38,372 nt of DNA from a virus (taxonomy: Duplodnaviria > Heunggongvirae > Uroviricota > Caudoviricetes): IMG/VR virus record IMGVR_UViG_2718218129_000003. One strand, given 5' to 3'. The notes below the pieces were generated by a model. That model saw only the letters and a list, made by a program, of their open reading frames with translations. It was not told the origin of the DNA and did no database searches. The translations under genes were made by a program, and so were the position numbers. Positions within the stretch are counted from its first letter, which is position 1; each line of letters starts with the position of its first letter. This document shows positions 1 to 30,818 of this stretch, one piece after another.

Positions 1-258
1 ATGCAAACCGTTATTTTTGGTCGTTCGGGTTGCCCTTACTGTGTGCGTGCAAAAGATCTGGCTGAGAAATTGAGCAATGAACGCGATGATTTTCAGTATC
101 AGTATGTAGATATTCGTGCGGAAGGGATCACTAAAGAAGATCTACAACAAAAGGCAGGTAAACCCGTAGAAACCGTGCCGCAGATTTTTGTCGATCAGCA
201 ACATATCGGCGGCTATACCGATTTTGCTGCATGGGTGAAAGAAAATCTGGACGCCTGA
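1..258 (+). CDS. grxA: Glutaredoxin 1
   Basis: 85-aa ORF with the CPYC redox motif (GCPYCVRAKDL). Sequence is recognisable as E. coli GrxA; synteny with ybjM and ybjL supports this. Confidence 0.9.
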   Translation: MQTVIFGRSGCPYCVRAKDLAEKLSNERDDFQYQYVDIRAEGITKEDLQQKAGKPVETVPQIFVDQQHIGGYTDFAAWVKENLDA

Positions 259-267
259 TCGTCTGAC

Positions 268-300
268 AAGCCCTCGCGTTGAGGGCTTTACTGATTTTTT
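268..300. terminator. Hairpin terminator between convergent grxA and ybjM
   Basis: Stem AAGCCCTC / GAGGGCTT with a 5-nt loop, followed by a T-rich run (TTTACTGATTTTTT). Confidence 0.5.
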
Positions 301-665
301 CTGTGCTGTGGTTTAAACAAACTACTGATAAATAAGAAACACAGTGCCCCCAGCGCACACCAGAACACCGCGCTTAGTAACCATGCCAGCTCTTGCCAGA
401 ATGAGCGCGTCGGTGAAAAAAACAGCCGCATAATGAGCATCGAACAGGGTGCCGCCAGCATTGCGCCAAACAGAGGTTTCAGGACTTCTCTACGCTGTGA
501 AAAGAAGCTGGCGACTGCTCCAGGAAGAATGAAAAATAGCAAGCCGATTTCAGGATGCCCGGCAGCCCGAAAAGCGCCTTTCATGTGCGTCGCCAGAAAA
601 AGGCACACCACAATGAAGAGGACAAAACAGCAGATTGCCCCCGCCCAACGTTGTTTATGTTTCAC
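288..665 (-). CDS. ybjM: Inner membrane protein YbjM
   Basis: 125-aa hydrophobic multi-helix ORF. Size and position between grxA and ybjL match the E. coli arrangement. Confidence 0.7.
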   Translation of the reverse strand: MKHKQRWAGAICCFVLFIVVCLFLATHMKGAFRAAGHPEIGLLFFILPGAVASFFSQRREVLKPLFGAMLAAPCSMLIMRLFFSPTRSFWQELAWLLSAVFWCALGALCFLFISSLFKPQHRKNQ

Positions 666-934
666 TCGTTCCTCCTGACACTGCGTCTATCGAACACATT
701 TTTCGCCAGTGTGGCGTTCAGTAAGATAAAGCCGCTTCGCATTCCATGCTAATATAGGCCAACGCAATTCATATAGCCGTTGATACCTAATGTGATTACA
801 CTAGTAAAATATATTGTTACTTTACTATCGTTTAGGTGCGCTGAATGAATCTGCGCCCTGAATTCTGGTAAAAAACATTATCGTAAATTACCATTTCTTT
901 CAACAGCTTACTAGTAAACAAGAAGTTAGCCTCC

Positions 935-2620
935 GTGAATATAAACGTCGCCGAATTGTTAAATGGGAATTACATTCTGTTATTATTTGTGGTCCTCGCG
1001 CTTGGGCTATGTCTCGGAAAGTTACGACTTGGTTCGATCCAACTGGGTAATTCCATTGGCGTTTTAGTCGTATCGCTGTTATTAGGCCAACAACATTTCA
1101 GCATTAACACCGATGCGCTTAATCTTGGCTTTATGCTGTTTATTTTCTGCGTCGGGGTCGAAGCCGGACCGAACTTTTTTTCCATTTTTTTTCGCGATGG
1201 GAAAAATTACCTAATGTTAGCACTGGTGATGGTTGGCAGTGCGCTGGTGATCGCCTTAGGGTTAGGTAAGCTGTTTGGCTGGGATATTGGCCTGACGGCC
1301 GGTATGTTAGCAGGCTCTATGACGTCGACACCGGTTCTGGTCGGTGCTGGCGATACACTGCGTCATTCCGGCATGGAAAGCAGGCAGCTCTCACTGGCAC
1401 TGGATAATCTGAGCCTCGGGTATGCCTTAACCTATTTAATCGGTCTGGTGAGTTTGATTGTTGGTGCGCGTTACTTGCCGAAATTGCAGCATCAGGACTT
1501 ACAGACCAGCGCCCAGCAAATCGCCCGCGAACGTGGCCTGGACACTGATGCCAACCGTAAGGTTTATTTACCGGTGATCCGCGCCTATCGCGTCGGCCCG
1601 GAGCTGGTGGCCTGGACCGACGGCAAAAATCTGCGTGAACTGGGTATTTATCGACAAACCGGCTGCTACATTGAACGTATTCGACGTAACGGGATTCTGG
1701 CAAATCCAGACGGTGATGCCGTGCTACAAATGGGCGATGAAATAGCGTTGGTAGGCTATCCCGACGCCCATGCCCGACTCGATCCCAGCTTCCGTAACGG
1801 TAAAGAAGTTTTCGATCGTGACCTTCTCGACATGCGTATCGTCACTGAAGAAGTGGTCGTTAAAAACCATAACGCTGTAGGTAAACGTCTCGCACAACTG
1901 AAGTTGACCGATCACGGTTGCTTCCTTAACCGCGTCATTCGTAGCCAGATTGAGATGCCGATAGATGACAACGTCGTGCTTAACAAAGGTGACGTTTTAC
2001 AAGTCAGCGGTGATGCCCGTCGCGTAAAAACCATCGCCGATCGCATCGGCTTTATCTCGATTCACAGCCAGGTCACTGACCTGCTGGCATTTTGCGCCTT
2101 CTTTGTTATTGGGCTGATGATCGGGATGATCACCTTCCAGTTCAGCACATTCAGTTTCGGCATGGGGAACGCTGCCGGGTTGTTATTCGCCGGAATTATG
2201 CTGGGCTTTATGCGTGCTAACCACCCGACCTTCGGTTACATTCCGCAAGGTGCATTAAGCATGGTGAAAGAGTTCGGCTTGATGGTGTTTATGGCAGGCG
2301 TTGGTCTGAGCGCCGGTAGCGGTATTAATAACGGCCTGGGCGCGATTGGCGGTCAGATGTTGATTGCCGGATTAATTGTCAGTCTTGTGCCCGTGGTTAT
2401 CTGTTTCTTGTTCGGTGCTTATGTATTGCGAATGAACCGCGCACTGTTGTTCGGCGCAATGATGGGCGCACGCACCTGCGCGCCGGCAATGGAGATCATC
2501 AGTGATACAGCTCGCAGTAACATCCCTGCGCTGGGCTACGCGGGCACCTACGCAATCGCCAACGTCCTGCTGACGCTGGCAGGGACAATCATCGTCATGG
2601 TATGGCCAGGATTAGGATAA
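935..2620 (+). CDS. ybjL: Putative transport protein YbjL (AAE/YidE-YbjL family, two TrkA-C domains)
   Basis: 561-aa ORF with a GTG start, membrane domains at both ends and a soluble middle region. N-terminus [16 protein letters not shown] is recognisable as YbjL. Confidence 0.85.
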
Positions 2621-2732
2621 AACTGAAGTTGCCCTGAAAATGAAATTTTTTTGCACAACCGCAGAACTTTTCCGCAGGGCATCAGTCTTAATTAGTGCCA
2701 CTGCTTTTCTTTGATGTCCCCATTTTGTGGAG

Positions 2733-2778
2733 CCCATCAACCCCGCCATTTCGGTTCAAGGTTGATGGGTTTTTTGTT
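2733..2778 (+). terminator. Rho-independent terminator downstream of ybjL
   Basis: 10-bp stem CCCATCAACC / GGTTGATGGG with a 17-nt loop, followed by TTTTTTGTT. Confidence 0.5.
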
Positions 2779-2866
2779 GCCTGTTAGATTACTCTCGATA
2801 AAATAATCACTTACTAGCCATATCAGCCTGCAATGGCGACAAAGTGGCGACAGAGAGAGAAAGAGC

Positions 2867-3388
2867 GTGTCCTTATCATTTAGTGACTCAGTAGCAATCG
2901 TCGGAATCATTGTAGGAATTTTGTGTATTGTTGTGGGATTGCCCGCACTTCTAACATTTATCCCACAACGGAAAGAGGCAAAAAGATTACGCAGGGAAAG
3001 ATATGCACAAATTCTAAAAGGTAAAAGTTGGAATAACCTTGGAGTTAACCATGGATTTCCTGAGCCATCACTGGACATACGAATTAACACCGTAGATAAC
3101 GCAGGTACACTTCAAGGTGAGATTATCAACTGCCAAAGTAATGTTATGGATTTAGATAAAATAACATTCCATATCAATGGTAAGCTAACCGATAAAGGAA
3201 CTGCATCAATAACACTATGCACTGCTATCGGATGGCGCCAAGTACCGGTGGGAGTTGCGAAATTACGTTATCGCGAAAAAGATGACACACTAGATTTCAT
3301 CTATCTGCATGATCATAAATTCAATCCAACCTTATCATGGGAACTAAGCCTCCCTCGGTTTACTACCTACGGACTAGTTGGCTGCTAA
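2867..3388 (+). CDS. Hypothetical membrane-anchored protein (N-terminal TM helix), AT-rich cargo gene at the prophage edge
   Basis: 173-aa ORF with a GTG start after a purine-rich stretch. N-terminal hydrophobic helix VAIVGIIVGILCIVVGLPALL followed by a basic stretch. Visibly more AT-rich than flanking host and phage DNA. No family recognised. Confidence 0.5.
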   Translation: MSLSFSDSVAIVGIIVGILCIVVGLPALLTFIPQRKEAKRLRRERYAQILKGKSWNNLGVNHGFPEPSLDIRINTVDNAGTLQGEIINCQSNVMDLDKITFHINGKLTDKGTASITLCTAIGWRQVPVGVAKLRYREKDDTLDFIYLHDHKFNPTLSWELSLPRFTTYGLVGC

Positions 3389-3509
3389 CTCTTTGTATAT
3401 GGTTCATGCCAGTCTGAACCCAAAAGGTAAATGGCTGCATATCCCTTTCTCTGAATTAAACCAGTAAAAACCCTCCAGCGGTGGGTTAATATTAGTAAGC
3501 TAATTGTTC

Positions 3510-3707
3510 TTAAATTCCGTTCGGATGAGGTGGCGCAGCGCTGATTTTTTGCGGGCGGCACACTGACCGCACAAAAGTCTCATGGGTCACGAAGGTATGT
3601 CCACACTCGATGTTAGTGCACTGGTTGTAACGCTCTTTGGTCAATGAAGATACCTGAAAACTGCTGCGAGTATGGGCGGCACTTCCACACAGTGGGCAAA
3701 TCATCAT
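3510..3707 (-). CDS. ogr: Ogr/Delta (186 B) family zinc-finger late transcription activator
   Basis: CPLCGSAAH...C(x4)C zinc-finger pattern typical of P2 Ogr. Located immediately after gene D as in P2 and 186. Start chosen at the internal Met (MICPLCG); the ORF track extends to 3740. Confidence 0.85.
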   Translation of the reverse strand: MMICPLCGSAAHTRSSFQVSSLTKERYNQCTNIECGHTFVTHETFVRSVCRPQKISAAPPHPNGI

Positions 3708-3797
3708 TTTTCGAGTTCTCCCCATTTTTGCTAAATTCATAATAATGATACCGTATTATTCCATTTTGCAAACTTAAAAGTTCTCCATTGCGAAGAA

Positions 3798-4898
3798 TCA
3801 TTCTATTTCGAAATCATCAATCCTCACTTCAAGCTCCAGACTGGTCGTAAAACCGTTATCCGGGCTGACGGTATGTGTCAGAGTCGTAATGGTCCATTCC
3901 GCATCATCTATCGGCTGTTTAAAACCACTGACTTTCACTGGCATTTCCGTGTAGAGATCTGCCCGACCTTCCGCCAGTTGTAGCGAGAATGACGCAACGC
4001 CGCGTTGCAGGCGTTCCCACTGCATTTTCGCTGCCCGTTCAGCGTTGCTCCGGTTGGCATAAGTGCGATTAAGTACCAGCACGTTTTCATCCGTACCCAC
4101 CAGGTAATCGCCCTGCTTCGCTTCCGGCTCTTTCTTCTGCTTCTTAGTCCTGCGCTTACGCTTCACCGTTGTGCTTTCTTTCTTCGCGGGTTCGCGGGTA
4201 TGCAACCAACTGGCAATTACGCCCGTATAGGCTCCGCGATCTGCCAGGGTAAAGCGGTGACTGTCGCCGTCCTTACGTGTGATAGTGATCACCGGCAGTG
4301 GTTTACCGCTGACACTTTTACTCTGTCCCTGTCGGATGAATAACAGATTGCCATTTTTCACCGACGCAATAGCACCGTACTGGCGCGCCAGCCGCATCAG
4401 AAAACTGCCGTCACTCTCATTAGTCTGGTCTATATGCTCCACGGGCTTATCCGACAGGTCTTTACCCAGTGCCATCTTCAGCTTGTGACGTACGGCTATT
4501 TCCTTCACTACTTCCCCGACGGTGGTCTTGTGCCACGACTTTTCACGGCGGGTATTCAGCGTTTCACGAAAATCAGCACTTCGCGCCCGAATAGTCAGGC
4601 GGTCCGGTGCGCCAGTGTGTTCAATCTCGTCCACCGTGAATGCCCCTTTCGGGAAAAGCGGCTGCCCCTTCCAGCCCAGCGCCAGCGTAATGACCGCACC
4701 ACGGCGCGGCAGCACGATTTTTCCATCGGCGTCGTCCAGCTCCAGATCAAGCTGGTCCGCTTCAAATCCCCGGTTATCCGTCAGCGTCAGCCCCATCAGG
4801 CGGTTGTCCAGCACAGTGGTGATATCCCTGCCTTCAATACTGATGCTGAATGCCGGAGTTTTGTTGCCTTTGTTAAGCAGTTCAGAGCTGAAATTCAC
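3798..4898 (-). CDS. D: Late control gene D tail protein
   Basis: 366-aa ORF in the syntenic position after U. Size and position match P2 gpD. Confidence 0.85.
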   Translation of the reverse strand: MNFSSELLNKGNKTPAFSISIEGRDITTVLDNRLMGLTLTDNRGFEADQLDLELDDADGKIVLPRRGAVITLALGWKGQPLFPKGAFTVDEIEHTGAPDRLTIRARSADFRETLNTRREKSWHKTTVGEVVKEIAVRHKLKMALGKDLSDKPVEHIDQTNESDGSFLMRLARQYGAIASVKNGNLLFIRQGQSKSVSGKPLPVITITRKDGDSHRFTLADRGAYTGVIASWLHTREPAKKESTTVKRKRRTKKQKKEPEAKQGDYLVGTDENVLVLNRTYANRSNAERAAKMQWERLQRGVASFSLQLAEGRADLYTEMPVKVSGFKQPIDDAEWTITTLTHTVSPDNGFTTSLELEVRIDDFEIE

Positions 4899-5380: not shown

Positions 5381-8300
5381 GCGTCGTATCCCCCCTGATC
5401 GCTGTAGTTACTCCTGGCTTTTGCCTTCAGCCTGCGTTCACGTTCATCAAGCTGGCGGGCCACCTCCCGCGCAATATCCTGCGCACTTTGTCCTGGCAGT
5501 GTCTGGATGATGATCTGCGTCGGTGCTTCAATCCGGTAAACAGGCGGCACAGTGGCTGCGCGACTCACAATTGCTTCACCGCCTTTCGCGGGAAGCGCCA
5601 AAGGATGCAACGGTGGAAGCTCTGCTGGCGCGGCAGCAACCCCCATCATTCCGGCGACAACGGCAGCCAGTGCAGCTGTATTTCTCCGGCTGGTCACGTT
5701 TGCCGGGCCGTTAACAATTTCCGGCCCGTTTTCACCGACGATGCCAAACTGCCCACGCGGGATATAGCCGCCGCTGTCATACATCCCCGCAAAGCCATAT
5801 CCCCATGACGGAAAACCACCCGATGGAATCATCACTTTACCGTCTGCATTCACCGTCGCAGGTTGCTGACGCGTCACGCTTTCCGGCAGTTTTGCCTTTG
5901 CGGCCTCTTTACTGACAATGCCGAGCTTCTCCAGCAACCAGGAAACGCCGGATTTCAGGGAGTCCAGCGGATGCATGACCATATTCAGCCCTTCCGCCAG
6001 TGCCTCCCCGAATCTCCGCCCCATTGCCGCTGTACTCTGCAGTTCGGCAGAGGTCGACTTAATGGGCGTCAGCAGATCAGTAAACCAGCCCCACAGCGCC
6101 TGTACTTTGTCGCCAATCCACTGGAACACGGGCTTAAGCTGTTCGAATGCTGCACTGACGGGACCTGCCGCCGCTTTGAATCCTTCCACCACGCCACCAA
6201 GAAATGCGGTGATGGGTTGCCAGTATTTCCACACAACCAGCGCCACGCCCGCCAGTGCAGTAACCACAAGACCTATCGGACTGAGCAGAGCACCTAACAG
6301 ACCAGATACGGCATACAGGGCAACGCGCAGCATCGCCAGTGGACCAGATGCCAGTACTCGCAGCACCGTGCCTGCGGCGGCCAGTCCACCGCGCAGTACC
6401 GCCAGAGGATTCATAAACATCACAGCAACAGCACGTAAACCGGATAATCCAGACTGCAAAAGTGCAACCGGCGCACCTGCTACAGTTTTCAGGACATTTC
6501 CCGTCAGTGATGCCGTGCGGCGCAAAGACGACAACGGCGCAGTAAGTAAACCTGCGGCGTTGCCCGATGAAGCAAGCCCGCGTCGCAGCAGTGCCAGTGG
6601 TGCGCCAGCCAGCCAGGACAACGCGTTGCTGGTTCGGGTTACTGCTGCCGTAACGGAAGGTAACGTTTTGATACCCAGCACAGAGAATCCCAGACGGATC
6701 ACTGCCAGCGGCCCCAGAACTGCAGCCAGCGCCACCGCTAAGGTGCCGAGGCCTACGGTAACCGCAGCCACAACAGCCGCTACTTTCATCAGTGTGCCTG
6801 TCAGTTCCGGGTTAGCTTCCACCCAGCGGCGCAACGCCCCCGTGATGCTTTTCACCGTGTACAGAATATCCATCAGCGGCTGGCGCAGCGTTTCGCCCAG
6901 GCTGCTGAAGGTGTTCTGCGCTCCAGTTTTGACCAGCAACCACTGAGCAGAAAGTGAGTCTTTGTTGATGTCGGATTCTTTCTGCATGGAACCGAGCGCA
7001 TCATTGCCCGCTGTCAGTTTTAGCTGGCGCTGCAGTTCCGGCAGGTTGTTTGCCAGTTTCGCCGCGTCATCACCAAACTCTTTACCAAACAACATGGTCA
7101 TGGCAGACAGACGCTTGTCCTGCGGCAGTGCGTTCACCTTCTCCAGCACACGCTGGATAGTTCCCATCGCATCCTTCGTCATCTGCTTTTCAATCACTTC
7201 AGGATTGAGTTTCAGCAGATTCATCCCTTCAAAGAAACTCTTGCTTTGCATGGTGGCAATGGACAATTCACGCACCATCGCGTTTGCTGCACTGGCTGCA
7301 ACCTCCGGCGCAGCACCCAGAGTCAGGAAGGTGGACCCCAGCGCCGCCGCTTTACGATAATCCAGACGGTCAGCCACACCGCCCAGACGTTGCATCACAT
7401 CGATGATGTCCGCCCCTTTCGACATGGCGTTATCATCCAGATAGTTCAGCGCATCACCGAGCTGTTCAATATTGCGGGTAGGTATTTTGTAGAGCTGGGC
7501 GATTTTCCCCAGACTTTCTGACAGTTCATCCGCTGGCAGCTCAAAGGCTGTTGCCGCCTTTGCCGCCGTACTGGCGAAGGCCAGCAGGTCACGTTTCTGG
7601 TCTTCCCAGCTGTCGTCAGGGTTTGCGACGTTCATACGCGCACCACCTTCAACCAGTGCAGCGAAGTCCACCGCACCGTTTTCCATCGGCAACTGTTCGC
7701 TGGCAGCCTTGATGGCATCCTGCATTTCATAAAAACGTGCAGTACGGTTTCCATTATCGTCACGCAGACCATTGACCTGCTTTGCCACACCTTTCATGGC
7801 ATCTTCCATGCTGGTATAGCTTTTTACTGCCGCCATCACTGGCGTCCCCATTGCCAGCCCTGCAGCCGTGGTAGTGGCTCCGGCTCCTGCAATACGATCG
7901 CGCACCTCCAGCGAACGGGCATAACTGGCACGCGCCGCATTCATCCTGCGCTGAGCTTCACCCAGTCGCTTCAGCCGCGCCTCCTGTTTCGACAATTCCT
8001 GGTTATAACGTGATGTTTCACGGGCTAAACGGGCAGTTGCTCCCGCATCATCTTTCGCAGAAATTCCCGCCCGGTACAGTTCTGCACGCACAAGCGCCGT
8101 TTGCTTCTGCAAATATTTTTGTTGTTCTTCCAGGCGTTGGACTGCCAGCGTTTGCCGACCTAAAGCCACAAGGTGCCGTTGTGATGGTTGTTCCATCGCC
8201 TCCAGCTCAGAGCTAAGCAAATTAGCCTTCTGTCTGGCATAGTTCAGCCTGTCGCCTAACTTCTTGTTATCGGCCTGCAGCTTGCGAAATTTTTCCAGGC

Positions 8301-8454
8301 TGTTACCCGCCTGATTGAGTTGCTTTAATGCGTCACGGGAATTTCTGATTGCGCCAGCCAGCTCTTTCGAACTGGCCTGTGCAGCACGGAATGGGCGGGT
8401 GAGTTTGTCAACCGCATTAAGAATGACCTGCAGCCGCAGGTTGTTATCACTCAT
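5377..8454 (-). CDS. T: Tail tape measure protein
   Basis: 1025-aa ORF with coiled-coil N-terminal region and Ala/Gly/Leu-rich internal repeats. Positioned after E/E+E'. Confidence 0.9.
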   Translation of the reverse strand: MSDNNLRLQVILNAVDKLTRPFRAAQASSKELAGAIRNSRDALKQLNQAGNSLEKFRKLQADNKKLGDRLNYARQKANLLSSELEAMEQPSQRHLVALGRQTLAVQRLEEQQKYLQKQTALVRAELYRAGISAKDDAGATARLARETSRYNQELSKQEARLKRLGEAQRRMNAARASYARSLEVRDRIAGAGATTTAAGLAMGTPVMAAVKSYTSMEDAMKGVAKQVNGLRDDNGNRTARFYEMQDAIKAASEQLPMENGAVDFAALVEGGARMNVANPDDSWEDQKRDLLAFASTAAKAATAFELPADELSESLGKIAQLYKIPTRNIEQLGDALNYLDDNAMSKGADIIDVMQRLGGVADRLDYRKAAALGSTFLTLGAAPEVAASAANAMVRELSIATMQSKSFFEGMNLLKLNPEVIEKQMTKDAMGTIQRVLEKVNALPQDKRLSAMTMLFGKEFGDDAAKLANNLPELQRQLKLTAGNDALGSMQKESDINKDSLSAQWLLVKTGAQNTFSSLGETLRQPLMDILYTVKSITGALRRWVEANPELTGTLMKVAAVVAAVTVGLGTLAVALAAVLGPLAVIRLGFSVLGIKTLPSVTAAVTRTSNALSWLAGAPLALLRRGLASSGNAAGLLTAPLSSLRRTASLTGNVLKTVAGAPVALLQSGLSGLRAVAVMFMNPLAVLRGGLAAAGTVLRVLASGPLAMLRVALYAVSGLLGALLSPIGLVVTALAGVALVVWKYWQPITAFLGGVVEGFKAAAGPVSAAFEQLKPVFQWIGDKVQALWGWFTDLLTPIKSTSAELQSTAAMGRRFGEALAEGLNMVMHPLDSLKSGVSWLLEKLGIVSKEAAKAKLPESVTRQQPATVNADGKVMIPSGGFPSWGYGFAGMYDSGGYIPRGQFGIVGENGPEIVNGPANVTSRRNTAALAAVVAGMMGVAAAPAELPPLHPLALPAKGGEAIVSRAATVPPVYRIEAPTQIIIQTLPGQSAQDIAREVARQLDERERRLKAKARSNYSDQGGYDA

Positions 8455-8883
8455 CGTTGGCCCCGCTTCTCTGAATCGCTTTATACCGCCATTCCAGCAC
8501 TTCGGTCAGCGGCATAACGTCAGTAACGGATGGCGGCCAGTGAAAAATGGTGGCGATATCTGCCACCAGATCGTCAACCGTCAGGCTGTCGGTAAACCGG
8601 CAAGCACCGACTTCTTCAACAAAAAAGTGACAACCTCAACCGACATGGCGGTGAGATCTGCCGGGTCCATCTCTGCAATTTCCTGCGCGGTCAGTGCCGG
8701 GCTGGAGATGCGGGGGATCACGGTCATCATCGCGTTCACATCCATATCCATAATGGCCTGCAGGCGTGTACCGCGCAGCGCACCGGACTGCGGTTTACGC
8801 AGCACAATTTCGGTAATTTCTGTTTTACCACGCTTGATAGGGGTATCCAGTTGAATAGTCTTTTCAGTCTGCTTATCGCTCAT
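8447..8883 (-). CDS. Tail assembly chaperone E+E' (-1 programmed frameshift product)
   Basis: After a -1 slip at TTTTTTG (minus-strand 8626..8620), the reading frame stays open for 57 further codons (VEEVGACRFTDSLTVDDLVADIATIFHWPPSVTDVMPLTEVLEWRYKAIQRSGANDE) and stops at a TGA overlapping the T start codon. Same architecture as P2 E/E+E'. Confidence 0.7.
8581..8883 (-). CDS. E: Tail assembly chaperone E
   Basis: 100-aa ORF upstream of T. Contains the slippery heptamer TTTTTTG near its 3' end. Confidence 0.8.
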   Translation of the reverse strand: MSDKQTEKTIQLDTPIKRGKTEITEIVLRKPQSGALRGTRLQAIMDMDVNAMMTVIPRISSPALTAQEIAEMDPADLTAMSVEVVTFLLKKSVLAGLPTA

Positions 8884-8937
8884 TTTATTGTCCTGTAAAT
8901 TGGGTTCTGGCGCGGAATCCCGCGCCGTTCAGATACA

Positions 8938-9453
8938 TCAGAGGCCGAGGGCGTTGCGGTGTGCTTCCATCAGGTCCACACCGTCCACAATTTCCACCAT
9001 GTTGATAAGGTCCACTTCATAGAGCACCTCACCATTGATAGTCAGCTTCGCGTAGCTGTTGGTACTGGTCACTTTGGTGGTGTTGCTTTCGCCCGTCTTC
9101 CACTCGCCGGAATCCACTTCTTTGTGACGTCCACGCACCACAAGCTCCACGGCCTGCACTTCCCCGGTATCGTCACGCTGGATAGAGCCGGTAAAGCGCA
9201 ACTGGATACCATCCACCGTGGCTTTGCCCATCTGCTTAAACAGCAGCAGTTCAGTACCACCAATGGAAAATTCCGTATCCAGTGCGCCGTCATCCAGTCC
9301 CAGATCCACATCCACTGCACCCGGCATTCCGCCGCCGCGATACTTCTCATATTTGCGGGTGAATTTCGGCAGCGTCAGCGACTCAACGATCCCCTGCCAG
9401 TTGTTCCCGTCATTAAACAGGTTCAGGTGTTTTAATTTGCGTGGTAAAGCCAT
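8938..9453 (-). CDS. FII: Major tail tube protein
   Basis: 171-aa ORF between sheath and E. Syntenic with P2 FII. Confidence 0.85.
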   Translation of the reverse strand: MALPRKLKHLNLFNDGNNWQGIVESLTLPKFTRKYEKYRGGGMPGAVDVDLGLDDGALDTEFSIGGTELLLFKQMGKATVDGIQLRFTGSIQRDDTGEVQAVELVVRGRHKEVDSGEWKTGESNTTKVTSTNSYAKLTINGEVLYEVDLINMVEIVDGVDLMEAHRNALGL

Positions 9454-9462
9454 GTTGTCCCC

Positions 9463-10635
9463 TTACGCGCTGACCTGGCTGGCAAAATTCACCAGGTACT
9501 GATCGGTGATGCGCTGACGCAGCATCAGGTTTTCAAGTGGCGGCACTGGCGTGTAGTCGTAGTCGATGGTGAGCTTCCCGGCTTTCAGAGTGTCTTTATC
9601 GTTCACCGACTCATCCAGCCAGCAATCACCACCAATGAGATAGCCCTGACTGACCAGGCTGCGCATTTTGGCGCGGATACCTTCGATAATGTCGCGGGCC
9701 AGCGACGGGTTCAGCGGTTTGTCCACCGCCCACATATGCGCTTCTGCCATCGTGTCCATCAGTACCTGCGCCGTGCGGGTGTAGTTTTCGAAGGCAAAGA
9801 GCGGGTCATCACTCAGGCAGCGGGAACCCCAGAAGCGGAAACCGTCTTTGCGGATAAGCGTGGTGACGTCGTTCTGGTTCAGCAGACCTGCATCGGTTGC
9901 CGGGTCCTGCAGATCCCAGAACACATCAGCAGAAATTCCGGTGACACCGTTCACGCCCACGTTGGACAGGCTTTTGTGCCACCCGGTCTGCTCATCAATT
10001 TTGGCGCGCAGACCGAGCGCACGAGCGGTGGCATATGCCGTTGCTTCGGCATTCAGCAGCGTGTCCCAGCCAGTAAAGTCAGGCCAGATCAGCATCCCTT
10101 CGCGCTGGCTGAAGTTTTCGCGGTAAGTGATCGCCTCCTGCACTGTCTTGCAGCCATACGCTGACAGGTAAGCAAACCCACGCAGGCTTTGCGCCACGCT
10201 CAGCAACTCAGTCGCTACCGCCTTGGTGTCGTGGCCTGGCACGCCGAGAATGCGCGGTTTAACGCCGAGCTGTGACTGGGCAGATAACAGGGCTTTCATA
10301 CCTGTTTTTTTACCTTCAGCAGTCACTGCGCCGATGATATTGGTCGTGGTTTCTTCTTCCGTTTCACCCTGCGGCACACGCACAACAACGGTCACGGGTT
10401 TTGCCTGGTCAGCGATGGCATCCAGCGAGCGGGCCAGTGTGCCGGACTCACCCGCTTTACCGCTGGCAATCAGCACATCAGTGATCAGCACGGGTTTATT
10501 AAGAGGAAACATTTTTGCATCGGCATCATCGCCCGTGCAGACCATACCCACGATGGCGGTGCTCACCGTGGTAATGGATCGGGTGCCTTCGTTGACTTCA
10601 ACAACGCGCACCCCGTGGTGGTAATCCTGAGCCAT
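9463..10635 (-). CDS. FI: Contractile tail sheath protein
   Basis: 390-aa ORF at the head of the FI-FII-E-T-U-D operon. Confidence 0.85.
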
Positions 10636-10711
10636 AGTGGCGAACCTCCTGATTGGATTAGGCTTCGCCCTATGTTGAAGTGATTGTGCCTGACAAACAG
10701 CTAAGCGCAGT

Positions 10712-10729
10712 TGTACCGTTATTCACACA
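10712..10729. promoter_or_regulatory. Candidate Ogr-dependent late promoter dyad (TGT-N12-ACA) upstream of FI
   Basis: TGTACCGTTATTCACACA lies 85 bp upstream of the FI start codon. P2 late promoters carry a TGT-N12-ACA activator site. Confidence 0.35.
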
Positions 10730-10777
10730 AAATGACGGTATTTGTCTACTTGCGGGGATAATCAAAATAATGCTGAT

Positions 10778-11344
10778 TCAGGGGGATTCATTGCTCTTAT
10801 TTGCCGGAAATTTTCTATAAATTGTGGAAACACCCACATCAAAAATCAGTGCAATACGCTGTCTTGATTCTCCGGCCTCGAGTAAGCGCCCAATCTGTGC
10901 CCACTGTTCGGTGGTCAACTTAGGACGGCGTCCACCTACTCTGCCTTTATCACGAGCTGCAGCCAGCCCCGCCCTGGTACGTTCAACTATCAGTTCGCGT
11001 TCCATTTCTGCCAGGGCCCCCATGACATGAAAAAAGAAACGGCCCATTGGGGTGCTGGTATCAATACTGTCAGTCAGGCTTCGGAAATTCACGCCACGCT
11101 GGCGCAACTCTTCTATCAGCGTAACAAGATGCCGCATACTGCGCCCCAACCTGTCCAGCTTCCAGACGACCAGCGTGTCTCCTGCCGATAGTGTCCTGAG
11201 CAGTTTTTTCAGCCCCGGTCTGTCGGACTTAGTGCCACTGATTTTATCCTCAAAAATTCGCTCACATCCCGCGCAGTTCAGTGCATTACGTTGCAAATCG
11301 GTGTTCTGGTCATTTGTTGACACGCGTACATAGCCAATAAGCAT
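10778..11344 (-). CDS. Site-specific DNA invertase (serine recombinase, Gin/Pin/Cin/Hin family)
   Basis: N-terminus MLIGYVRVSTNDQNTDLQ with the catalytic Ser region, and a C-terminal HTH (GVSTIYRKF). Adjacent to inverted 26-bp crossover sites. Confidence 0.9.
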   Translation of the reverse strand: MLIGYVRVSTNDQNTDLQRNALNCAGCERIFEDKISGTKSDRPGLKKLLRTLSAGDTLVVWKLDRLGRSMRHLVTLIEELRQRGVNFRSLTDSIDTSTPMGRFFFHVMGALAEMERELIVERTRAGLAAARDKGRVGGRRPKLTTEQWAQIGRLLEAGESRQRIALIFDVGVSTIYRKFPANKSNESP

Positions 11345-11371
11345 GATCATCCCCCTGAATAAAAACCGGAG

Positions 11372-11872
11372 ATGATGCCAGTTAGCCGTAATCTCTGCAT
11401 TTTCATAAACGTTGGTTTGGGAGAAGGTTCGGCATTACCCGTTGGTGTGCCTGTTCCGTGGCCTTCTGCAACACCGCCTACTGGCTGGCTGAAATGTAAC
11501 GGTGCGGCTTTTTCTGCTGAAGAATACCCGGAACTGGCAAAGGCTTACCCGACAAATAAATTGCCTGATTTACGCGGTGAGTTTATTCGTGGCTGGGATG
11601 ACGGTCGTTCAGTAGATACTGGTCGCAGCGTTATGTCTGCACAGAGCGCGCGTGTTGGTTATATTAAATTTGATATGGGAATTTATGGTATTCCTGCAGG
11701 TACGGGCTCACTTATTTTGTCCAATGATATCTTAATTACGGGTCATGACAGTAATGGCTCAAGCCTATTGCTGAACAACTCTAATGAGCGGGCAATTGGT
11801 GAAATGTATGTCGTTCCTGCCGATACTCGCCCACGGAATATTGCATTTAACTATATCGTGAGGGCTGCATAA
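11372..11872 (+). CDS. Alternative (currently silent) tail-fibre C-terminal receptor-binding cassette
   Basis: The ORF frame passes through the left crossover site encoding NVGLGEGS, matching LGLGEAAK at the right site in gene H. It has no credible independent start and would fuse to the H constant region after inversion. Confidence 0.6.
   Translation: MMPVSRNLCIFINVGLGEGSALPVGVPVPWPSATPPTGWLKCNGAAFSAEEYPELAKAYPTNKLPDLRGEFIRGWDDGRSVDTGRSVMSAQSARVGYIKFDMGIYGIPAGTGSLILSNDILITGHDSNGSSLLLNNSNERAIGEMYVVPADTRPRNIAFNYIVRAA
11400..11425. repeat. Invertase crossover site (gix/hix-like), left
   Basis: TTTTCATAAACGTTGGTTTGGGAGAA resembles gix/hix sites (AAACC..GGTTT core) and is an inverted copy of the site at 13227..13252. 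Confidence 0.75.
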
Positions 11873-12474
11873 TGGATAACGCTGTATTAAATAGCGAGTT
11901 TATTGCTACAAAGGCGGGAAATATTACCGTCTATAACTATGATGGCGAAACACGGGAATATATTTCCACTTCAAATGAATATCTTGCCATTGGTGTCGGT
12001 ATCCCTGCATATTCCTGTTTAGATGCCCCTGGCACACATAAGGCAGGTTATGCTATCTGCCGTTCGATGGATTTAAACTCATGGGAATATGTGCCAGACC
12101 ATCGCGGTGAAATTGTCTATAACACCGAAACGGGAGACGCCAAAGAAATCACAACTCCGGGTGATTACCCCGAAAAAACAACCACTATCGCCCCGTTAAC
12201 GCCATACGATAAATGGGATGGTGAGAAATGGGTGACGGATACCGAGGCACAGCATAGCGCCGCAGTAGACGCGGCAGAAGCACAACGTCAGTCACTGATT
12301 GATACTGCAATGGCTTCCATTAGTCTGATTCAGTTGAAATTGCAGGCCGGACGGAAACTGACGCAGGCAGAAACAACCCGACTTAACGCCATGCTGGATT
12401 ACATTGACGCGGTGACGGCAACAGATACCAGCACCGCGCCGGATGTCATCTGGCCTGAACTGCCGGAGGCGTAG
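11872..12474 (+). CDS. Tail fibre assembly protein (partner of the silent cassette)
   Basis: 200-aa ORF whose C-terminus (LDYIDAVTATDTSTAPDVIWPELP) is related to the C-terminus of the convergent Tfa at 12446..12889. Confidence 0.7.
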   Translation: MDNAVLNSEFIATKAGNITVYNYDGETREYISTSNEYLAIGVGIPAYSCLDAPGTHKAGYAICRSMDLNSWEYVPDHRGEIVYNTETGDAKEITTPGDYPEKTTTIAPLTPYDKWDGEKWVTDTEAQHSAAVDAAEAQRQSLIDTAMASISLIQLKLQAGRKLTQAETTRLNAMLDYIDAVTATDTSTAPDVIWPELPEA

Positions 12475-12889
12475 GCCATTCAATATCTGGCGCACCGGAA
12501 GTATCGACCAGCTCCAGTGCGTCCAGATAATCCAGCCACAAATTATATTGCGCCAGTTCCTCACCTTTCAGACGACCAATAGCCGCTTTACCAGGCCATT
12601 GTTTACTGTTCATGTGTTCGTTGGCCTGATTAAGCAATAATTGTCTTTCTGATTCTGCCTGTTGAATAAGTTCTTCATGTGATGGTTGAGGTATTTCAGC
12701 CCATGTGGGAAAACCATTTACCCCTGCAACTCGGATTTTCCCTTGTGGCGGTTCCGCCATATATTTTACAGAAATGTTATCAGGAATATCTAATGCATCA
12801 GCGGGCCATGTTCCATTTACTTCATAAGTATTTTTTAAATTAACAGCATAAAATGCATTTTCCGAGGGGGAATAAATATATTGATTCAT
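12446..12889 (-). CDS. G: Tail fibre assembly protein (gpG-like, expressed orientation)
   Basis: 147-aa ORF directly downstream of H with the Tfa C-terminal motif WLDYLDALELVDTSGAPDIEWP. Confidence 0.75.
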   Translation of the reverse strand: MNQYIYSPSENAFYAVNLKNTYEVNGTWPADALDIPDNISVKYMAEPPQGKIRVAGVNGFPTWAEIPQPSHEELIQQAESERQLLLNQANEHMNSKQWPGKAAIGRLKGEELAQYNLWLDYLDALELVDTSGAPDIEWPTPPAVQAR

Positions 12890-12890
12890 A

Positions 12891-14288
12891 TTATCTTCCT
12901 ATTGCGATAATCATAGTTCCATACAAACCATTTCCGGTTGATACTTTTAAGGTTACTGATGTCCTTGTTGTCGTGTACCCCATAAGTTTAAAGGTCGGAG
13001 CAGCCGTTAATGTGCCATCAGACCATAAGGCACTAACAGCAAGTGCACCTGAAGGAAATGCAATAGGGAAATTACCAGTAGTTCCGTTAGTGTCCGCCCC
13101 ATAAACATTCATCGAAAACATTTGGACAATATGACCACTTGGTAACTGAAACCAGTTTTTGCCAGATGGGAATGCAGACATATCTGGTATCTGATTTTCC
13201 CCTGTTCCCACATTTCGTTTTGCCGCTTCTCCCAAACCAAGGTATGTGAGAAGACCAGCTACATCCTTTCCACTCAAATTAGTCAGCGTATTGTCCAGCG
13301 GTTGTTTACCTGCCAGCGCATTAAGCATTGTCGTGGCAAAGTTCGGATCATTCCCCAGTGCCGCCGCCAGTTCGTTCAGTGTATCCAGTGCCGCAGGTGC
13401 AGAACCCACCATTCCTGCAATCGCCGATTTCACAAAAGCCGTAGTGGCAATCTGTGTATTATTGACCGACTGCGCCGCCGTAGGGGCTGTTGGCGTTCCG
13501 GTGAGTGCCGGACTCGACAGCGGCGCTTTCAGTGCCAGCGCATTGTTAATGGTGGTACTGAATTTCGGATCATTGTTAATGGCTACGGCTATTTCTTTCA
13601 GCGTGTCCAGCGTGGCTGGCGCACCATTAATAAGAGCCGTCAGTGCCGCCTGAACAAATGCGGTGGTCGCAATCTGCGTGGTGTTATTCCCCTCCGCTGG
13701 CGTTGGCGCTTTGGGTGTTCCGGTCAATGTCGGGCTTTCTTTGGGTGCATACTGTGAATGCGGGTCCGGTGCGGCAAGATGTTTTGCCATCTTATCATCC
13801 ACGAACACCTTCAGCTCCAGTACCTTGTCATCCACATACTTGCGGGTTGCCAGCACGACGGCAGGGTCGATTTTCAGGGTGATATTGTCCGTGCTGCTGG
13901 TAATCAGCACCATGCGCACGGTCTGGGTGCGCCCGCTGCCTTCAGCCAGTTGCGGCTTATAGCTTTCCGGGCAGTTGCCTACGGCAATCAATGCCCCGGA
14001 CTCATCAAACAGACCCACTTCACGTATCCACCAACCACCCTCATTTTCAGGGATCACCTGTTCAGCAATAATCTGGCTGCTGTTCTGCGGGTCGATATAG
14101 AGCATATTCAGCGCAGCCCGGCGTTTCTCATTTACCAGTGCCGTCTGCTTTGCGTCCGGCGCCGACAATGCTCCGCCGCCATCGCCCACCGCCATATGGG
14201 TAATTTTTAGCGGCACACCTAGCGCGGCGGCGCTGGCAAGTTTCGCCGCGCCAATATCCGTCAGCAGGGTATAAAATTTTGTGCTCAT
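12891..14288 (-). CDS. H: Tail fibre protein (constant N-terminal region plus current variable C-terminus)
   Basis: 465-aa ORF following I. Internal Ala/Thr-rich tandem repeats. Crosses the right crossover site. Confidence 0.85.
   Translation of the reverse strand: MSTKFYTLLTDIGAAKLASAAALGVPLKITHMAVGDGGGALSAPDAKQTALVNEKRRAALNMLYIDPQNSSQIIAEQVIPENEGGWWIREVGLFDESGALIAVGNCPESYKPQLAEGSGRTQTVRMVLITSSTDNITLKIDPAVVLATRKYVDDKVLELKVFVDDKMAKHLAAPDPHSQYAPKESPTLTGTPKAPTPAEGNNTTQIATTAFVQAALTALINGAPATLDTLKEIAVAINNDPKFSTTINNALALKAPLSSPALTGTPTAPTAAQSVNNTQIATTAFVKSAIAGMVGSAPAALDTLNELAAALGNDPNFATTMLNALAGKQPLDNTLTNLSGKDVAGLLTYLGLGEAAKRNVGTGENQIPDMSAFPSGKNWFQLPSGHIVQMFSMNVYGADTNGTTGNFPIAFPSGALAVSALWSDGTLTAAPTFKLMGYTTTRTSVTLKVSTGNGLYGTMIIAIGR
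13227..13252. repeat. Invertase crossover site (gix/hix-like), right, inside gene H
   Basis: TTCTCCCAAACCAAGGTATGTGAGAA. Its first 14 bp are identical to the reverse complement of the left site. Confidence 0.75.
13320..13735. repeat. Tandem direct repeat (two units of about 200 bp) inside tail fibre gene H
   Basis: Encodes two copies of a roughly 69-aa unit (…NNTQIATTAFV…APATLDTL…NDP.F.TT…NALA.K.PL…). Visible at both DNA and protein level. Confidence 0.6.
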
Positions 14289-14890
14289 GGATTCACTCTC
14301 ATTGTGTCAATAACATGGACCGCCCCGCCTTCATGCGCGGTGCCGCCGGAAATAATTGTTTCGTTGATATACGGATAGATCGTGATTTCTTCGCCAAGAT
14401 AACTGGCGGCTCCCACCCAATGCGAACCGCTGGTCTGCAGATTGATGGACATGCCGATCATGTGACGGCTACATGGTTTGGCATCGCTTATCAGTCGCTC
14501 AAGTTCCAGATAGGTATCTTCAGTGATGCCCTGGTCCTGCACACCAATGTCCAGACGAAACGTGCCCGGTGTTTCTCCGGTCTGCCACCACTCAATAATG
14601 CGGATCAGGAAGCCGAACGGCTCCACCACCCGCCGTACGGCACTGGTGGTTCCTTTGTGCTGATGAATATAAAAAGCATCCTTCACTACCTGGCGTTTGA
14701 CGCTTTCTGTCCAGCCCTCGTCCCAGCGATCCACAGAGAACGCCCAGGCGAGATAAGGCAGGAAACTGACCGGACAGGTTGCCGGATTCCACAAGTCACG
14801 CAGTGACACCTGCAGATCAGAAATCCCGCTACAGGTTTGCGCCAGTCGGCGCTCCAGTGGCGTTGAACCCGGTGGCAGCAGACTATTCAT
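14285..14890 (-). CDS. I: Baseplate assembly protein I
   Basis: 201-aa ORF between J and H, overlapping the H start by 4 nt. Confidence 0.8.
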   Translation of the reverse strand: MNSLLPPGSTPLERRLAQTCSGISDLQVSLRDLWNPATCPVSFLPYLAWAFSVDRWDEGWTESVKRQVVKDAFYIHQHKGTTSAVRRVVEPFGFLIRIIEWWQTGETPGTFRLDIGVQDQGITEDTYLELERLISDAKPCSRHMIGMSINLQTSGSHWVGAASYLGEEITIYPYINETIISGGTAHEGGAVHVIDTMRVNP

Positions 14891-25600: not shown

Positions 25601-26266
25601 TTAAAGATCCGGATCTACAGGCTCATGATATAGATTTACAGGGTAATGAATAACTTCATAATTCAGTTGAGTAACTGTGTGAACATGCTGGCTATAAAAA
25701 ACCAATGGATTTTTTTGACAAGGAGTAATCGTTATAGATTTACAGGCATGAATTCTTGGTGCGAATTTATCTAAATGCGCCTTCCAGTTGCTCATCATTT
25801 CATTACATTTTCTATTACGAGTATAGATAATCAATCCACCACTTGCGCTGTCTACGGTCCCTGTACTATATCGTTCAGTGAGTTGAGCATACCCTTTAAA
25901 TAAATAACTATATGAAGATGTATGTTTTTTGGCTTCGCCATGCCAAATATAATCCTTTAGTTTTATTGTAATATCACAATGTCCGCGCTGATTATTTTCA
26001 TGAAATGCTTCAATGCCCATATCTTTATTTTTGATATTGGCCAATAAAATTAAAGTAAGCTGATCTTCTGTTAAATCGAAGTTTAACTTATTTGAATTCT
26101 CTTCTATTTCCTTTACAGCAGAATCAAGTTCAATCCTGACAAATTGTTTGAAATTATCGTACGATTGAAGTGCAAATCTAACACGAGTAATAGAAGCATT
26201 AATACGCTGAAGAAAAATATCATTATCAATATCAGCCAAACTCATTGCTGCAGACATTTTTAACAT
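25601..26266 (-). CDS. Hypothetical protein, third gene of an AT-rich three-gene cargo operon
   Basis: 221-aa ORF sharing one nucleotide with the upstream gene. No recognised family. Contains a D-x13-E-x-K pattern (HCDITIKLKDYIWHGEAKK). Confidence 0.6.
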   Translation of the reverse strand: MLKMSAAMSLADIDNDIFLQRINASITRVRFALQSYDNFKQFVRIELDSAVKEIEENSNKLNFDLTEDQLTLILLANIKNKDMGIEAFHENNQRGHCDITIKLKDYIWHGEAKKHTSSYSYLFKGYAQLTERYSTGTVDSASGGLIIYTRNRKCNEMMSNWKAHLDKFAPRIHACKSITITPCQKNPLVFYSQHVHTVTQLNYEVIHYPVNLYHEPVDPDL

Positions 26267-26712
26267 CAGATAATATCCTTTGATTTAGATTCATCTAATG
26301 TAAAAAAAGGAAATACGAATGACTTATAGTCATACATAAGCTCCCCTGTAAATGGGTTTACTAAAGATTGACTGATTTCCGCCTCAATAACTTCCTCTAT
26401 TTCAAGTTCTACAGGGTCATGAAAATCATCAATGAACCAATAATTGAGTTTTAAAAAATCAACCTTTGGGCTACAAAGAATTTGTATGGCCGGATAGATA
26501 ACCTGCTCATACGTTTCTGGCTGTAAAACCTTATTATAACCACCAGCTATATTAAATAAATCCTTATAACTTAAAGCTATATTTGATGATTTTTTAGCCC
26601 TTGCCTCGATTTCATCGTACAAATAGCAAGCTAACGCCCCAATTTCAGGGCGTTCTGCACACATTTCTTTGATGATCTTGGGCATATCACCATCCTTCAT
26701 TGCTGACTCCAA
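26266..26712 (-). CDS. Hypothetical acidic protein, second gene of the cargo operon
   Basis: 148-aa ORF whose start abuts the stop of the 371-aa gene. No recognised family. Confidence 0.6.
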   Translation of the reverse strand: MESAMKDGDMPKIIKEMCAERPEIGALACYLYDEIEARAKKSSNIALSYKDLFNIAGGYNKVLQPETYEQVIYPAIQILCSPKVDFLKLNYWFIDDFHDPVELEIEEVIEAEISQSLVNPFTGELMYDYKSFVFPFFTLDESKSKDII

Positions 26713-27819
26713 TTATAATATCAGCTTTGTGAGGGTTTCGAAATCATCTTTGGATATACATTTACTTAATATAGCATAGTTAACAGGAGAGCAACTACTC
26801 CCTCCTAGATGCCTGCGGAGTGTTCCCGGAATGATAAGCTCTACGTTATCCGCTAATTGCAGTTTTGGATTATTTCTATCAACTCTAATTCCAATACGAT
26901 ACAAACCAATACTGCCTACTGCTTTGATGCCTTCCTTATTAAACAAATCATCACGTAAGTCTTTAGTGGCCACATTTTTCTTTTCTTTATGCGTAGTCCC
27001 CTCATTCGTCAAAAATGACAAATCAAAGACTTTATAGCTTAATTTTGAATAAGGCAATGAATTTTGTTTGAAAATTGGCTCAATTAACGGATAAAAATCT
27101 TTTTCCGATGATTTAAATTCATAACCGACATGATTATACAATTCACGAATAATGTTACTCTTTGCAAAAGTAACATTATCACCAATAATATTACCATTAG
27201 TATCTACCAAAACATGAATTTTATTAGTAACAGAGTCTAATATACAGACATCAAAACATTGTCGCTTTTCTTTTCGCTTTGCAATAATTTCATCAAACTG
27301 CTTGTATTGCGCAAGTGCTGACGGGGGAATTTTTTCTCTTACAACTAATTCTCTGACAGATGAAAAAACAAGTATTGACTGGGTGTTTTGAATAGAATAA
27401 TTAACAAGTTCAGGTTGATTTTTTACAGCATTTTGCAATTGGACATCATCAAGGATCGAATCAACCAATAATGATGGTTGATTCATCAAATTCCATTGAA
27501 AACTAAATCTGTCATTTAGTGTTTTAATTACACTATTATCTACAGTCAAACTAAATATTGCTTTTTCACCATAAACGACCTGACCAAAAATTAGGTCATT
27601 TACGTTTGCCATAATGCCATCAAACTTTTGCCTATCTTTACTTTTAAGATCAATGAGGCTTTCTAGTATTTTTTCGTTTGTTGCTTCACGCCCCCTACCT
27701 GTTGGCAGCCCTAAAGACGCAATAATTGGCCTTGCAACGTTCCATGTGAAACGTTCAGTTAAGGTCAAGATCGACTTTAACTCAGACTCAGAAAGCACTA
27801 CTGGGACACTACCTGTCAT
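26713..27819 (-). CDS. Hypothetical protein, first gene of the cargo operon
   Basis: Start placed at the ATG preceded by AGGTG (the ORF track starts at GTG 27828). About 368 aa, no Walker A motif, no recognised family. Confidence 0.6.
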   Translation of the reverse strand: MTGSVPVVLSESELKSILTLTERFTWNVARPIIASLGLPTGRGREATNEKILESLIDLKSKDRQKFDGIMANVNDLIFGQVVYGEKAIFSLTVDNSVIKTLNDRFSFQWNLMNQPSLLVDSILDDVQLQNAVKNQPELVNYSIQNTQSILVFSSVRELVVREKIPPSALAQYKQFDEIIAKRKEKRQCFDVCILDSVTNKIHVLVDTNGNIIGDNVTFAKSNIIRELYNHVGYEFKSSEKDFYPLIEPIFKQNSLPYSKLSYKVFDLSFLTNEGTTHKEKKNVATKDLRDDLFNKEGIKAVGSIGLYRIGIRVDRNNPKLQLADNVELIIPGTLRRHLGGSSCSPVNYAILSKCISKDDFETLTKLIL

Positions 27820-27978
27820 AACTTGCACCTAGTCATCCAAAAAGCAATAAGAATTTGCTCTTGTCTTAATTTATCCTTCGATACCTAACAAATTACCTCA
27901 ATGTTGAAAAAATTTGCAAGCCATTTGCTTCTAAAAAGCGACCTTACTCAGAGTGTTACAAAACTAAGCGAGCGCGCG

Positions 27979-30808: not shown

Positions 30809-30818
30809 AAAAGTCACC

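Follow-up and report, generated by a model that had tools for sequence, protein, structure and literature searches.

A probable Pin/Gin-type tail-fibre inversion switch in a P2/186-like Escherichia coli prophage

Organization of the tail-fibre locus

The stretch of DNA analysed here, referred to as the window in its full length of 38,372 nucleotides (virus record IMGVR_UViG_2718218129_000003; Caudoviricetes), is part of an Escherichia coli chromosome that carries a P2/186-type prophage. Between the prophage genes FI and I lies a locus consisting of the tail-fibre gene H, a second fibre cassette, two genes for tail-fibre assembly (Tfa) chaperones, two inverted 26-bp sites and a gene for a serine DNA invertase (Table 1). 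An original prediction, made from the sequence without database searches, had described this locus as an invertible tail-fibre segment with a Gin/Pin-type invertase that switches host range. The segment itself stands as described: the invertase with its serine, the paired sites, the in-frame swap and the two Tfa genes are all intact.

Table 1 Features of the inversion locus and its bounding genes, in window coordinates
Feature	Position	Strand	Remarks
FI, sheath gene	9463-10635	-	Bounds the locus on one side
Serine DNA invertase, Pin/Gin type	10778-11344	-	188 aa from MLIGYVRVS; alternative ORF start two codons upstream, at 11350
Putative Fis-dependent recombinational enhancer	11255-11326	-	Inside the invertase gene (coding nt 19-90); homology to the P1 cin enhancer
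Left (invertase-proximal) 26-bp site	11400-11425	.	Crossover dinucleotide TT at 11412-11413
Alternative H C-terminal cassette (Sv'), presumed silent	11426-11872	+	Pfam Collar 1.1e-15; mechanical ORF 11372-11872
Tfa chaperone of the silent cassette, TfaE-like	11872-12474	+	200 aa; Pfam Caudo_TAP 5e-32
Tfa chaperone of the currently expressed cassette	12446-12889	-	147 aa; Pfam Caudo_TAP 7.8e-33
Tail-fibre gene H	12891-14288	-	Native product 465 aa; P2-type N-terminal fibre domain, gp53-like C-terminal domain
Currently expressed variable H C-terminus (Sv)	12891-13226	-	About 115 aa; Pfam Gp53-like_C 2.1e-07, H residues 382-465
Right 26-bp site, inside H	13227-13252	.	Crossover dinucleotide AA at 13239-13240
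H constant N-terminal part	13253-14288	-	About aa 1-350, outside the invertible segment; Pfam Phage_tail_fib N-terminal 1.6e-64
I, P2-type baseplate gene	14285-14890	-	Bounds the locus on the other side, adjoining H

The two sites are the arms of the longest inverted repeat in the interval 10600-14400 (11400-11426 and 13226-13252; 27 nt, 23/27 or 85% complementary, 1799 nt apart), and 22 of the 26 positions within the 26-bp frames are identical. They had been predicted to share 14 identical bases, which agrees with a perfect run, TTGGTTTGGGAGAA(G), of 14 nt inside the frames that reaches 15 nt with the next base. The core dinucleotides TT and AA are complementary, as inversion requires. When up to two mismatches are allowed, the 14-mer is found in the 38 kb at the two sites only (0.23 expected), and a 26-bp gix/pix-type consensus with up to three mismatches matches the same two places only in the window and has no match in 100 shuffles, so that a chance match is excluded. 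The predicted AAACC..GGTTT core is perfect in neither site (left AAACG-TT-GGTTT, right AAACC-AA-GGTAT), each of which combines one good inner half-site, TTCTCCCAAACC, with one degenerate outer half-site. A third recombination site, such as that of a four-variant locus in enteropathogenic E. coli (EPEC), was sought and none is present in the window.

The right site lies inside H, where it encodes ...YLGLGEAAK..., and the left site lies in frame in ORF 11372-11872, where it encodes ...NVGLGEGS..., both as predicted. The boundary between the constant and variable parts of H falls at ...LLTYLGLGE. In the window orientation, H encodes 465 residues (...LLTYLGLGE/AAKRNVG..., the slash marking the junction) and is followed by the gene for the 147-aa Tfa. 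Inversion in silico, by reverse-complementing 11412-13240, fuses the constant part in frame to the second C-terminus with no stop codon at the junction, giving an H' of 502 residues (...LLTYLGLGE/GSALPVG...) that has a tail-collar end and is followed directly by the 200-aa Tfa gene. The exchange of the H C-terminus proposed in the original prediction is thus borne out at the level of the reading frames, and the corresponding long ORFs are called by RefSeq in relatives that carry the flipped segment.

The two tips belong to unrelated Pfam families (gp53-like C versus tail collar). The gp53-like tip reaches about 61% identity at most among the matches listed in a phage collection, and the tail-collar tip, which as the silent cassette matches PHROG 523 (tail collar fiber protein) at 3.6e-65, shares only the collar domain with many fibres, including T4 gp37. 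As long as it is unfused, this cassette is presumably silent. Each cassette is followed by its own Tfa gene, and the two Tfa genes are convergent with overlapping 3' ends, again as predicted; the overlap measures 29 bp. The locus thereby shows the features of invertible tail-fibre segments such as Mu G, P1 C and e14 P, namely a crossover inside the fibre gene, in-frame alternatives and a convergent Tfa pair.

The constant part of H also contains two tandem 74-aa repeats (13253-13733, residues 186-333), identical at 44 of 74 positions, with the pattern PxLTGTPxAPT...TQIATTAFV...LDTL...NDPxF...NALA. Tandem Repeats Finder detected no DNA repeat in H, and the repeats are visible at the protein level only.

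The invertase gene is immediately adjacent, as had been noted: its ORF (10778-11350, minus strand) starts 49 bp from the left site, and 68.5 bp separate the centre of that site from the invertase ATG. The product contains a Pfam resolvase N-terminal domain (7e-53, aa 5-137) and an HTH_7 domain (1.5e-15, aa 140-183) and matches PHROG 125 'DNA invertase' (3.5e-100) and the Mu Gin structures 3uj3/4m6f (3e-93 over residues 1-184). It is 86% identical to e14 Pin, 74.6% to Mu Gin and about 79% to P1 Cin, and the invertase of Klebsiella phage KP12 is 100% identical to it. Against the NCBIfam models the invertase had only sub-threshold matches and the fibre and Tfa proteins had no match, and the invertase is not among the defence genes of PADLOC.

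Mutation of the catalytic serine would, in the original prediction, have been part of the case against a switch; this residue (Ser9) is intact, together with the active-site residues R7, R42, D64, R65 and R68. These positions were mapped via HMMER alignment to gamma-delta resolvase (R8, S10, R45, D67, R68 and R71) and Gin. Residues K46, K47, R50, Q150, R153 and L154, the counterparts of Hin residues 47, 48, 51, 151, 154 and 155, are also present (the window numbering is that of Hin minus 1, from alignment to the Hin DNA-binding-domain chain 1hcr). In Hin, K47, K/R48, K/R51, Q151, R154 and L155 contact Fis and the enhancer, and these basic helix-B and Q-x-x-R-L residues are kept in Fis/enhancer-dependent invertases and not in resolvases (McLean et al., 2013; PMC3798978). 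In size and domains, catalytic residues, Fis/enhancer-contact residues and paired 26-bp sites, the system therefore has the features of the Fis/enhancer-dependent serine invertases Gin, Hin, Cin and Pin.

A Fis-dependent enhancer is probably located inside the 5' end of the invertase gene. The GenBank record of P1 annotates nt 19-90 of the cin coding sequence as the enhancer of Cin-mediated inversion, and the equivalent stretch of the window is identical to it at 57 of 72 positions (79%, compared with 69% in the remainder of the gene). When the P1, Mu, e14 and window genes are compared, identity at third codon positions peaks in codons 1-24 (0.58, versus 0.35-0.49 elsewhere), and two Fis-like 15-mers, GTGTCAACAAATGAC and GCGCGGGATGTGAGC, lie at the two ends of the putative enhancer, 49 bp apart. 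A scan of the invertase 5' region with the strict Fis consensus GNNYRNNWNNYRNNC returned one of the two sites expected, and the enhancer was therefore defined via homology to the annotated P1 enhancer and not by the consensus alone.

Two further elements flank the invertase gene. A weak terminator-like hairpin with a T-run (11364-11383, minus strand) lies between the left site and the invertase start and, by eye, is not conserved in e14. On the other side, the 142-bp gap between the invertase stop codon and FI contains a TGT-N12-ACA dyad, TGTACCGTTATTCACACA, at 10712-10729, 77-94 bp upstream of the FI start, which presumably has the shape of the Ogr/Delta-dependent activator sites of P2 late promoters. 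If the dyad is such an activator site, the invertase module would be flanked by the end of the V operon on one side and by an intact pF promoter on the other.

Natural inversion in relatives and comparison with known systems

The native 3.7-kb sequence and its in silico flipped version were searched against 5,426 complete E. coli genomes, and at a coverage of at least 80% the native version is matched by 67 genomes and the flipped version by 97. The closest flipped loci are 97% identical over 94% coverage; an exact copy of the locus in the flipped state was sought in these genomes and not found. Two pairs of sister genomes, the yak isolates LS4 and NQ3 (chromosomes of 5,196,956 and 5,196,957 bp) and the bovine isolates OkiPb01698 and OkiPb01682, differ in orientation. 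In both pairs about 9.7 kb are identical except for the segment between TTGGTTTGGGAGAAG and CTTCTCCCAAACCAA, which is the exact reverse complement with no mismatches. The invertases of these pairs are identical to that of the window at 186 and 187 of 188 residues. Precise natural inversion at the same repeats has thus taken place in prophages with 99%-identical invertases.

Inversion of this kind has also been observed in culture. Goldberg et al. (2014) found coexisting orientations in cultures for e14 and for two P2-like prophages of EPEC E2348/69, in which phase-variable inversions alternate the tail-fibre C-termini (PMC4272514). The repeat of the e14 P segment, which was found in both orientations in culture in a manner dependent on Pin enzymes (PMC4272514; PMC12529663), has been published as TTGGTTTGGGAGAAGG (PMC12529663) and is the same as the repeat in the window. 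Mutants of e14 lacking pinE, or pinE and pinQ, are locked in one orientation (PMC12529663).

The original prediction had called the locus a Mu/P1-style system. The assignment to the Gin/Pin class stands, and the closest relative is neither Mu nor P1 but the e14 P segment with Pin (invertase 86%, TfaE 89%). The e14 segment (stfP-tfaP / tfaE-stfE, pinE) has the same architecture and homologous parts. Its Pin-proximal site is identical to the left site of the window at 26 of 26 positions, the core-to-core length is 1827 bp in both, and the distance from the site centre to the invertase ATG is 68.5 bp in e14 and in Mu, as in the window. The overlap of tfaP and tfaE is likewise 29 bp and identical in sequence to that of the window Tfa genes. 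The 200-aa Tfa is 89% identical to TfaE over 200 aa, and the C-terminal 78 aa of the 147-aa Tfa are 65% identical to TfaP. The fibre parts are less uniform: the first ~80 aa of the silent cassette are nearly identical to StfE and its distal half differs, whereas the gp53-like tip is only 32% identical to the StfP C-terminus. The e14 element is a defective lambdoid remnant with a truncated fibre gene; in contrast, the prophage in the window is of the P2/186 myovirus type and appears complete, and its module is joined to a P2-type H of full length that includes the N-terminal domain for baseplate attachment.

The Mu G/Gin and P1/P7 C/Cin systems share with the window a constant fibre N-terminus and two C-termini, each with a Tfa (U/U'), as well as 26-bp sites encoding ...NLGL... 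and a neighbouring invertase gene with an internal enhancer, which in the window is putative. The Mu G segment is 3 kb long compared with 1.8 kb in the window, and the core dinucleotide is GA in Mu and AA in the window. The invertase gene of the window has its 5' end towards the site, and that of P1 its 3' end. The original prediction had looked to an alignment of both cassettes with Mu S/S', but no significant similarity was detected for H or for either cassette. In BLASTP comparisons with Mu S, S'v, U and U', H and the two cassettes gave no fibre match, the only hit being a weak match of one Tfa to U'; with the fibre parts unmatched and one Tfa weakly U'-like, the comparison with Mu fibres leads nowhere.

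Within the P2 family, inversions are known from the EPEC E2348/69 prophages, from Salmonella Fels-2 (Fin) and from invertases of the Z/fun hotspot, all in the same phage family and at the same genomic position as in the window. In Fels-2, fin lies beside a 2.7-kb invertible fragment (PMC3535392), and a DNA invertase is often encoded in the Z/fun hotspot, with neighbouring genes inverted (bioRxiv 10.1101/2024.10.15.618418). Annotations of an invertase together with two fibre and two Tfa genes are found in many sequenced P2-like phages (Cartapus, 500465-1, KP12 and pro483). In EPEC, one locus contains three repeats and takes four forms, in contrast to the two sites of the window, and the particular pair of tips in the window differs from those of previously reported P2-like inversions.

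The locus had also been placed where P2 carries Z/fun, between G and FI, and the P2 gene order (H, G, terminator, fun(Z), pF, FI) confirms this. P2 has the same late-gene order and the same H N-terminal domain, and the module of the window fills the interval between the fibre genes and FI; P2 itself carries only one H/G pair, together with the T5-exclusion gene fun(Z), and lacks an invertase. A sister prophage in strain AR_452, integrated at the same ybjL site, is 100% identical to the window over the first 3.8 kb and 97% identical over 7700-10636, through FI, but has a plain 576-aa H and one Tfa gene with no invertase. Since P2 has fun(Z) and AR_452 a plain H and Tfa at this position, the block of tip, Tfa and invertase is an exchangeable module, and the AR_452 comparison shows that modules are swapped among P2-like prophages that are related in other respects.

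Proposed mechanism and alternative explanations

Very probably, the locus is a site-specific inversion switch of the Pin/Gin type with which a P2/186-like E. coli prophage alternates its tail fibre. By analogy with the known systems, dimers of the serine invertase would bind the two inverted 26-bp sites, and host Fis bound to the enhancer would join them in an invertasome on supercoiled DNA. Ser9 would cut at the central TT/AA, one pair of subunits would rotate by 180 degrees and the DNA would be religated, with the 1827-bp segment 11413-13239 inverted as the outcome. The late operon V-W-J-I-H would always transcribe the constant part of H (about aa 1-350). In the window orientation, this part would be joined to the 115-aa gp53-like tip, followed by the 147-aa Tfa; after inversion, it would continue in frame into the tail-collar tip of 152 aa, with the TfaE-like chaperone of 200 aa next. 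A population of lysogens would then release virions with either receptor-binding tip, a form of bet-hedging on host range. Inversion is expected to be active in this strain as well, and would presumably depend on Fis and the enhancer.

Several points weigh against this interpretation. The outer half-sites are degenerate, and the sites of the flipped sister pairs each differ from those of the window by 1 nt in the outer half. The single assembled window shows one orientation, and the only two relatives with 100% coverage (98.1% identity) are both in that same orientation. Of the two Fis-like 15-mers, only GCGCGGGATGTGAGC fits the strict consensus and GTGTCAACAAATGAC does not, and their spacing is 49 bp, compared with a reported 47 bp in hin (PMC3798978). 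A search of the interval from the invertase gene to the left site gave no sigma-70-like promoter for this gene. Both tips are unlike Mu S and S', and that they differ in host range is presumed by analogy with known segments.

Three alternative explanations are each unlikely. In the first, which is unlikely, the locus is a fossil switch: one orientation would have been fixed through changes in the outer half-sites, loss of the enhancer or an unexpressed invertase, leaving the second cassette as a silent relic. The one orientation of the window, found also in both 98%-identical loci of complete genomes, would fit such a state, although two close relatives are too few for their common orientation to be informative. 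It would be consistent also with outer half-sites that are each one base off sites proven to flip, and with the want of a clear invertase promoter; the sigma-70 scan found nothing upstream of the silent cassette either, but says little about whether the cassette is promoterless, as had been predicted, or about autoregulation, because the total number of hits is not above that in shuffles (8 versus 5.4). Against a fossil, the invertase ORF is intact with all catalytic and Fis-contact residues and is one or two residues away from the invertases at flipped loci, and the left site is identical at all 26 positions to the experimentally active e14 site (PMC12529663). Neither the two cassettes nor the two Tfa genes are interrupted, a state that speaks for ongoing selection.

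The second explanation, which is quite unlikely, accepts the switch as real but assigns it a role in the lysogen, in host defence or superinfection exclusion and not in phage host range. The leader of ORF 11372 would be fused to the gp53-like tip to form a short chimeric fragment, comparable to StfE2 of e14, that blocks phage adsorption. There is precedent for this in e14, in which StfE2 arises when the P segment inverts at the same repeat and then prevents T2 from adsorbing (PMC12529663), and flipped relatives of the window have a ~130-aa 'gp53-like domain-containing protein' annotated by RefSeq beside the invertase. The resemblance of the Sv tip to the StfP C-terminus that forms StfE2 (32% identity) points in the same direction, but the similarity is low, and no promoter for the short ORF was detected in the sigma-70 scan. 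The virion genes of the prophage are intact, and because the prophage looks complete for virion production, a role as a classical fibre switch is enough; the one role does not preclude the other. An extension of this idea that is just as improbable holds that the invertase and its sites belong to a network in which they cross-react with Pin segments, of the e14 type and others, present in the same cell; the flipped lysogen would then make a short StfE2-like chimeric fragment that excludes T-even-type phages. If this were true, the host-range switch would double as a recombinase-activated host defence.

The third explanation attributes the flips in the sister genomes to RecA-dependent recombination between short inverted repeats, or to assembly error, instead of invertase catalysis; the breakpoints can be placed only somewhere within the 15-bp identical repeat, so that the crossover cannot be assigned to the central dinucleotide from sequence alone, but this is a highly improbable account, as efficient RecA recombination usually requires a longer identity than 15 bp, the repeats are built as 26-bp dyads of the gix/pix kind and adjoin a Gin/Pin orthologue, and the same flip is found independently in two lineages with nothing else changed in 9.7 kb. 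The orientation-locked e14 pinE and pinE pinQ mutants (PMC12529663) argue in the same sense for catalysis by the invertase.

Prophage setting and implications

The window represents E. coli chromosome, with nt 1-3800 being 100% identical to several complete genomes. It starts with grxA-ybjM-ybjL and continues with the P2/186-type prophage, integrated beside ybjL, to its end. The gene order is ogr, D, U, T, E/E', FII, FI, the inversion locus, H, I, J, W, V, S, R, the lysis genes, X, L, M, N, O, the divergent P and Q, a hotspot of accessory genes, A, dam, CII, CI and int. This P2-like (Peduoviridae) order and its hallmark proteins are evident from the ORF layout and from Pfam matches to Tail_P2_I, sheath domains, GPD, GPA, portal, terminase, GpR and Phage_tail_S, and the RefSeq annotation of the AR_452 sister prophage agrees with the P2-like assignment. 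The P2 tail, head, lysis and replication genes are all intact, and from its sequence the prophage looks complete and functional for virion production.

The immunity region is of the 186 type, with CI and CII/CP76. In the early region, 30575-30880 and 33571-34488 (minus strand) encode a DinI-like protein, which may be an antirepressor of the 186 Tum type, and a Dam methyltransferase of the D12 class. Because of the DinI-like protein, the D12-class Dam and the 186-type CI and CII, the prophage is considered 186-like rather than P2-like in immunity and induction.

Accessory genes were observed in two further places. The P2 'old/tin' hotspot, between the replication gene A and the portal gene Q, contains a toxin-antitoxin defence pair on the minus strand consisting of DarT (29526-30107; PADLOC 2e-36) and the macro-domain protein DarG (28550-29521; PADLOC 3e-80), with Pfam matches to DarT and Macro. 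In the same hotspot, adjoining the portal gene, three consecutive ORFs of 221, 148 and 371 aa (25601-27828, minus strand) have no Pfam or PADLOC match and correspond only to PHROGs 9664, 11490 and 12777, of unknown function; they are candidate accessory or defence cargo. The AR_452 prophage carries a TIGR02391 protein in place of DarTG and differs further in an extra 1.2-kb ORF between V and S and in its CI/int region. A 173-aa ORF (2867-3388, plus strand) lies between the host gene ybjL and the phage gene ogr, in a third P2-like hotspot near the attachment site; it has no Pfam match, and its counterpart in the RefSeq annotation of AR_452 is labelled a hypothetical protein.

The device described here is real but already well known, as it belongs to the textbook class of phase variation represented by Mu G, P1 C and e14 P. 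Its arrangement is not unusual in P2-like prophages, in which such inversions or invertases have been reported (PMC4272514; bioRxiv 10.1101/2024.10.15.618418). This type of locus is common in E. coli genomes and is annotated in RefSeq and in GenBank phage records, and it therefore carries little weight as a discovery. For annotation, H and the 'extra' fibre ORF are best treated as one gene with two alternative 3' ends, and assemblies of such strains may carry either orientation. For phage therapy and tailocin engineering, the locus offers two ready-made pairs of tip and chaperone on one P2-type fibre scaffold.

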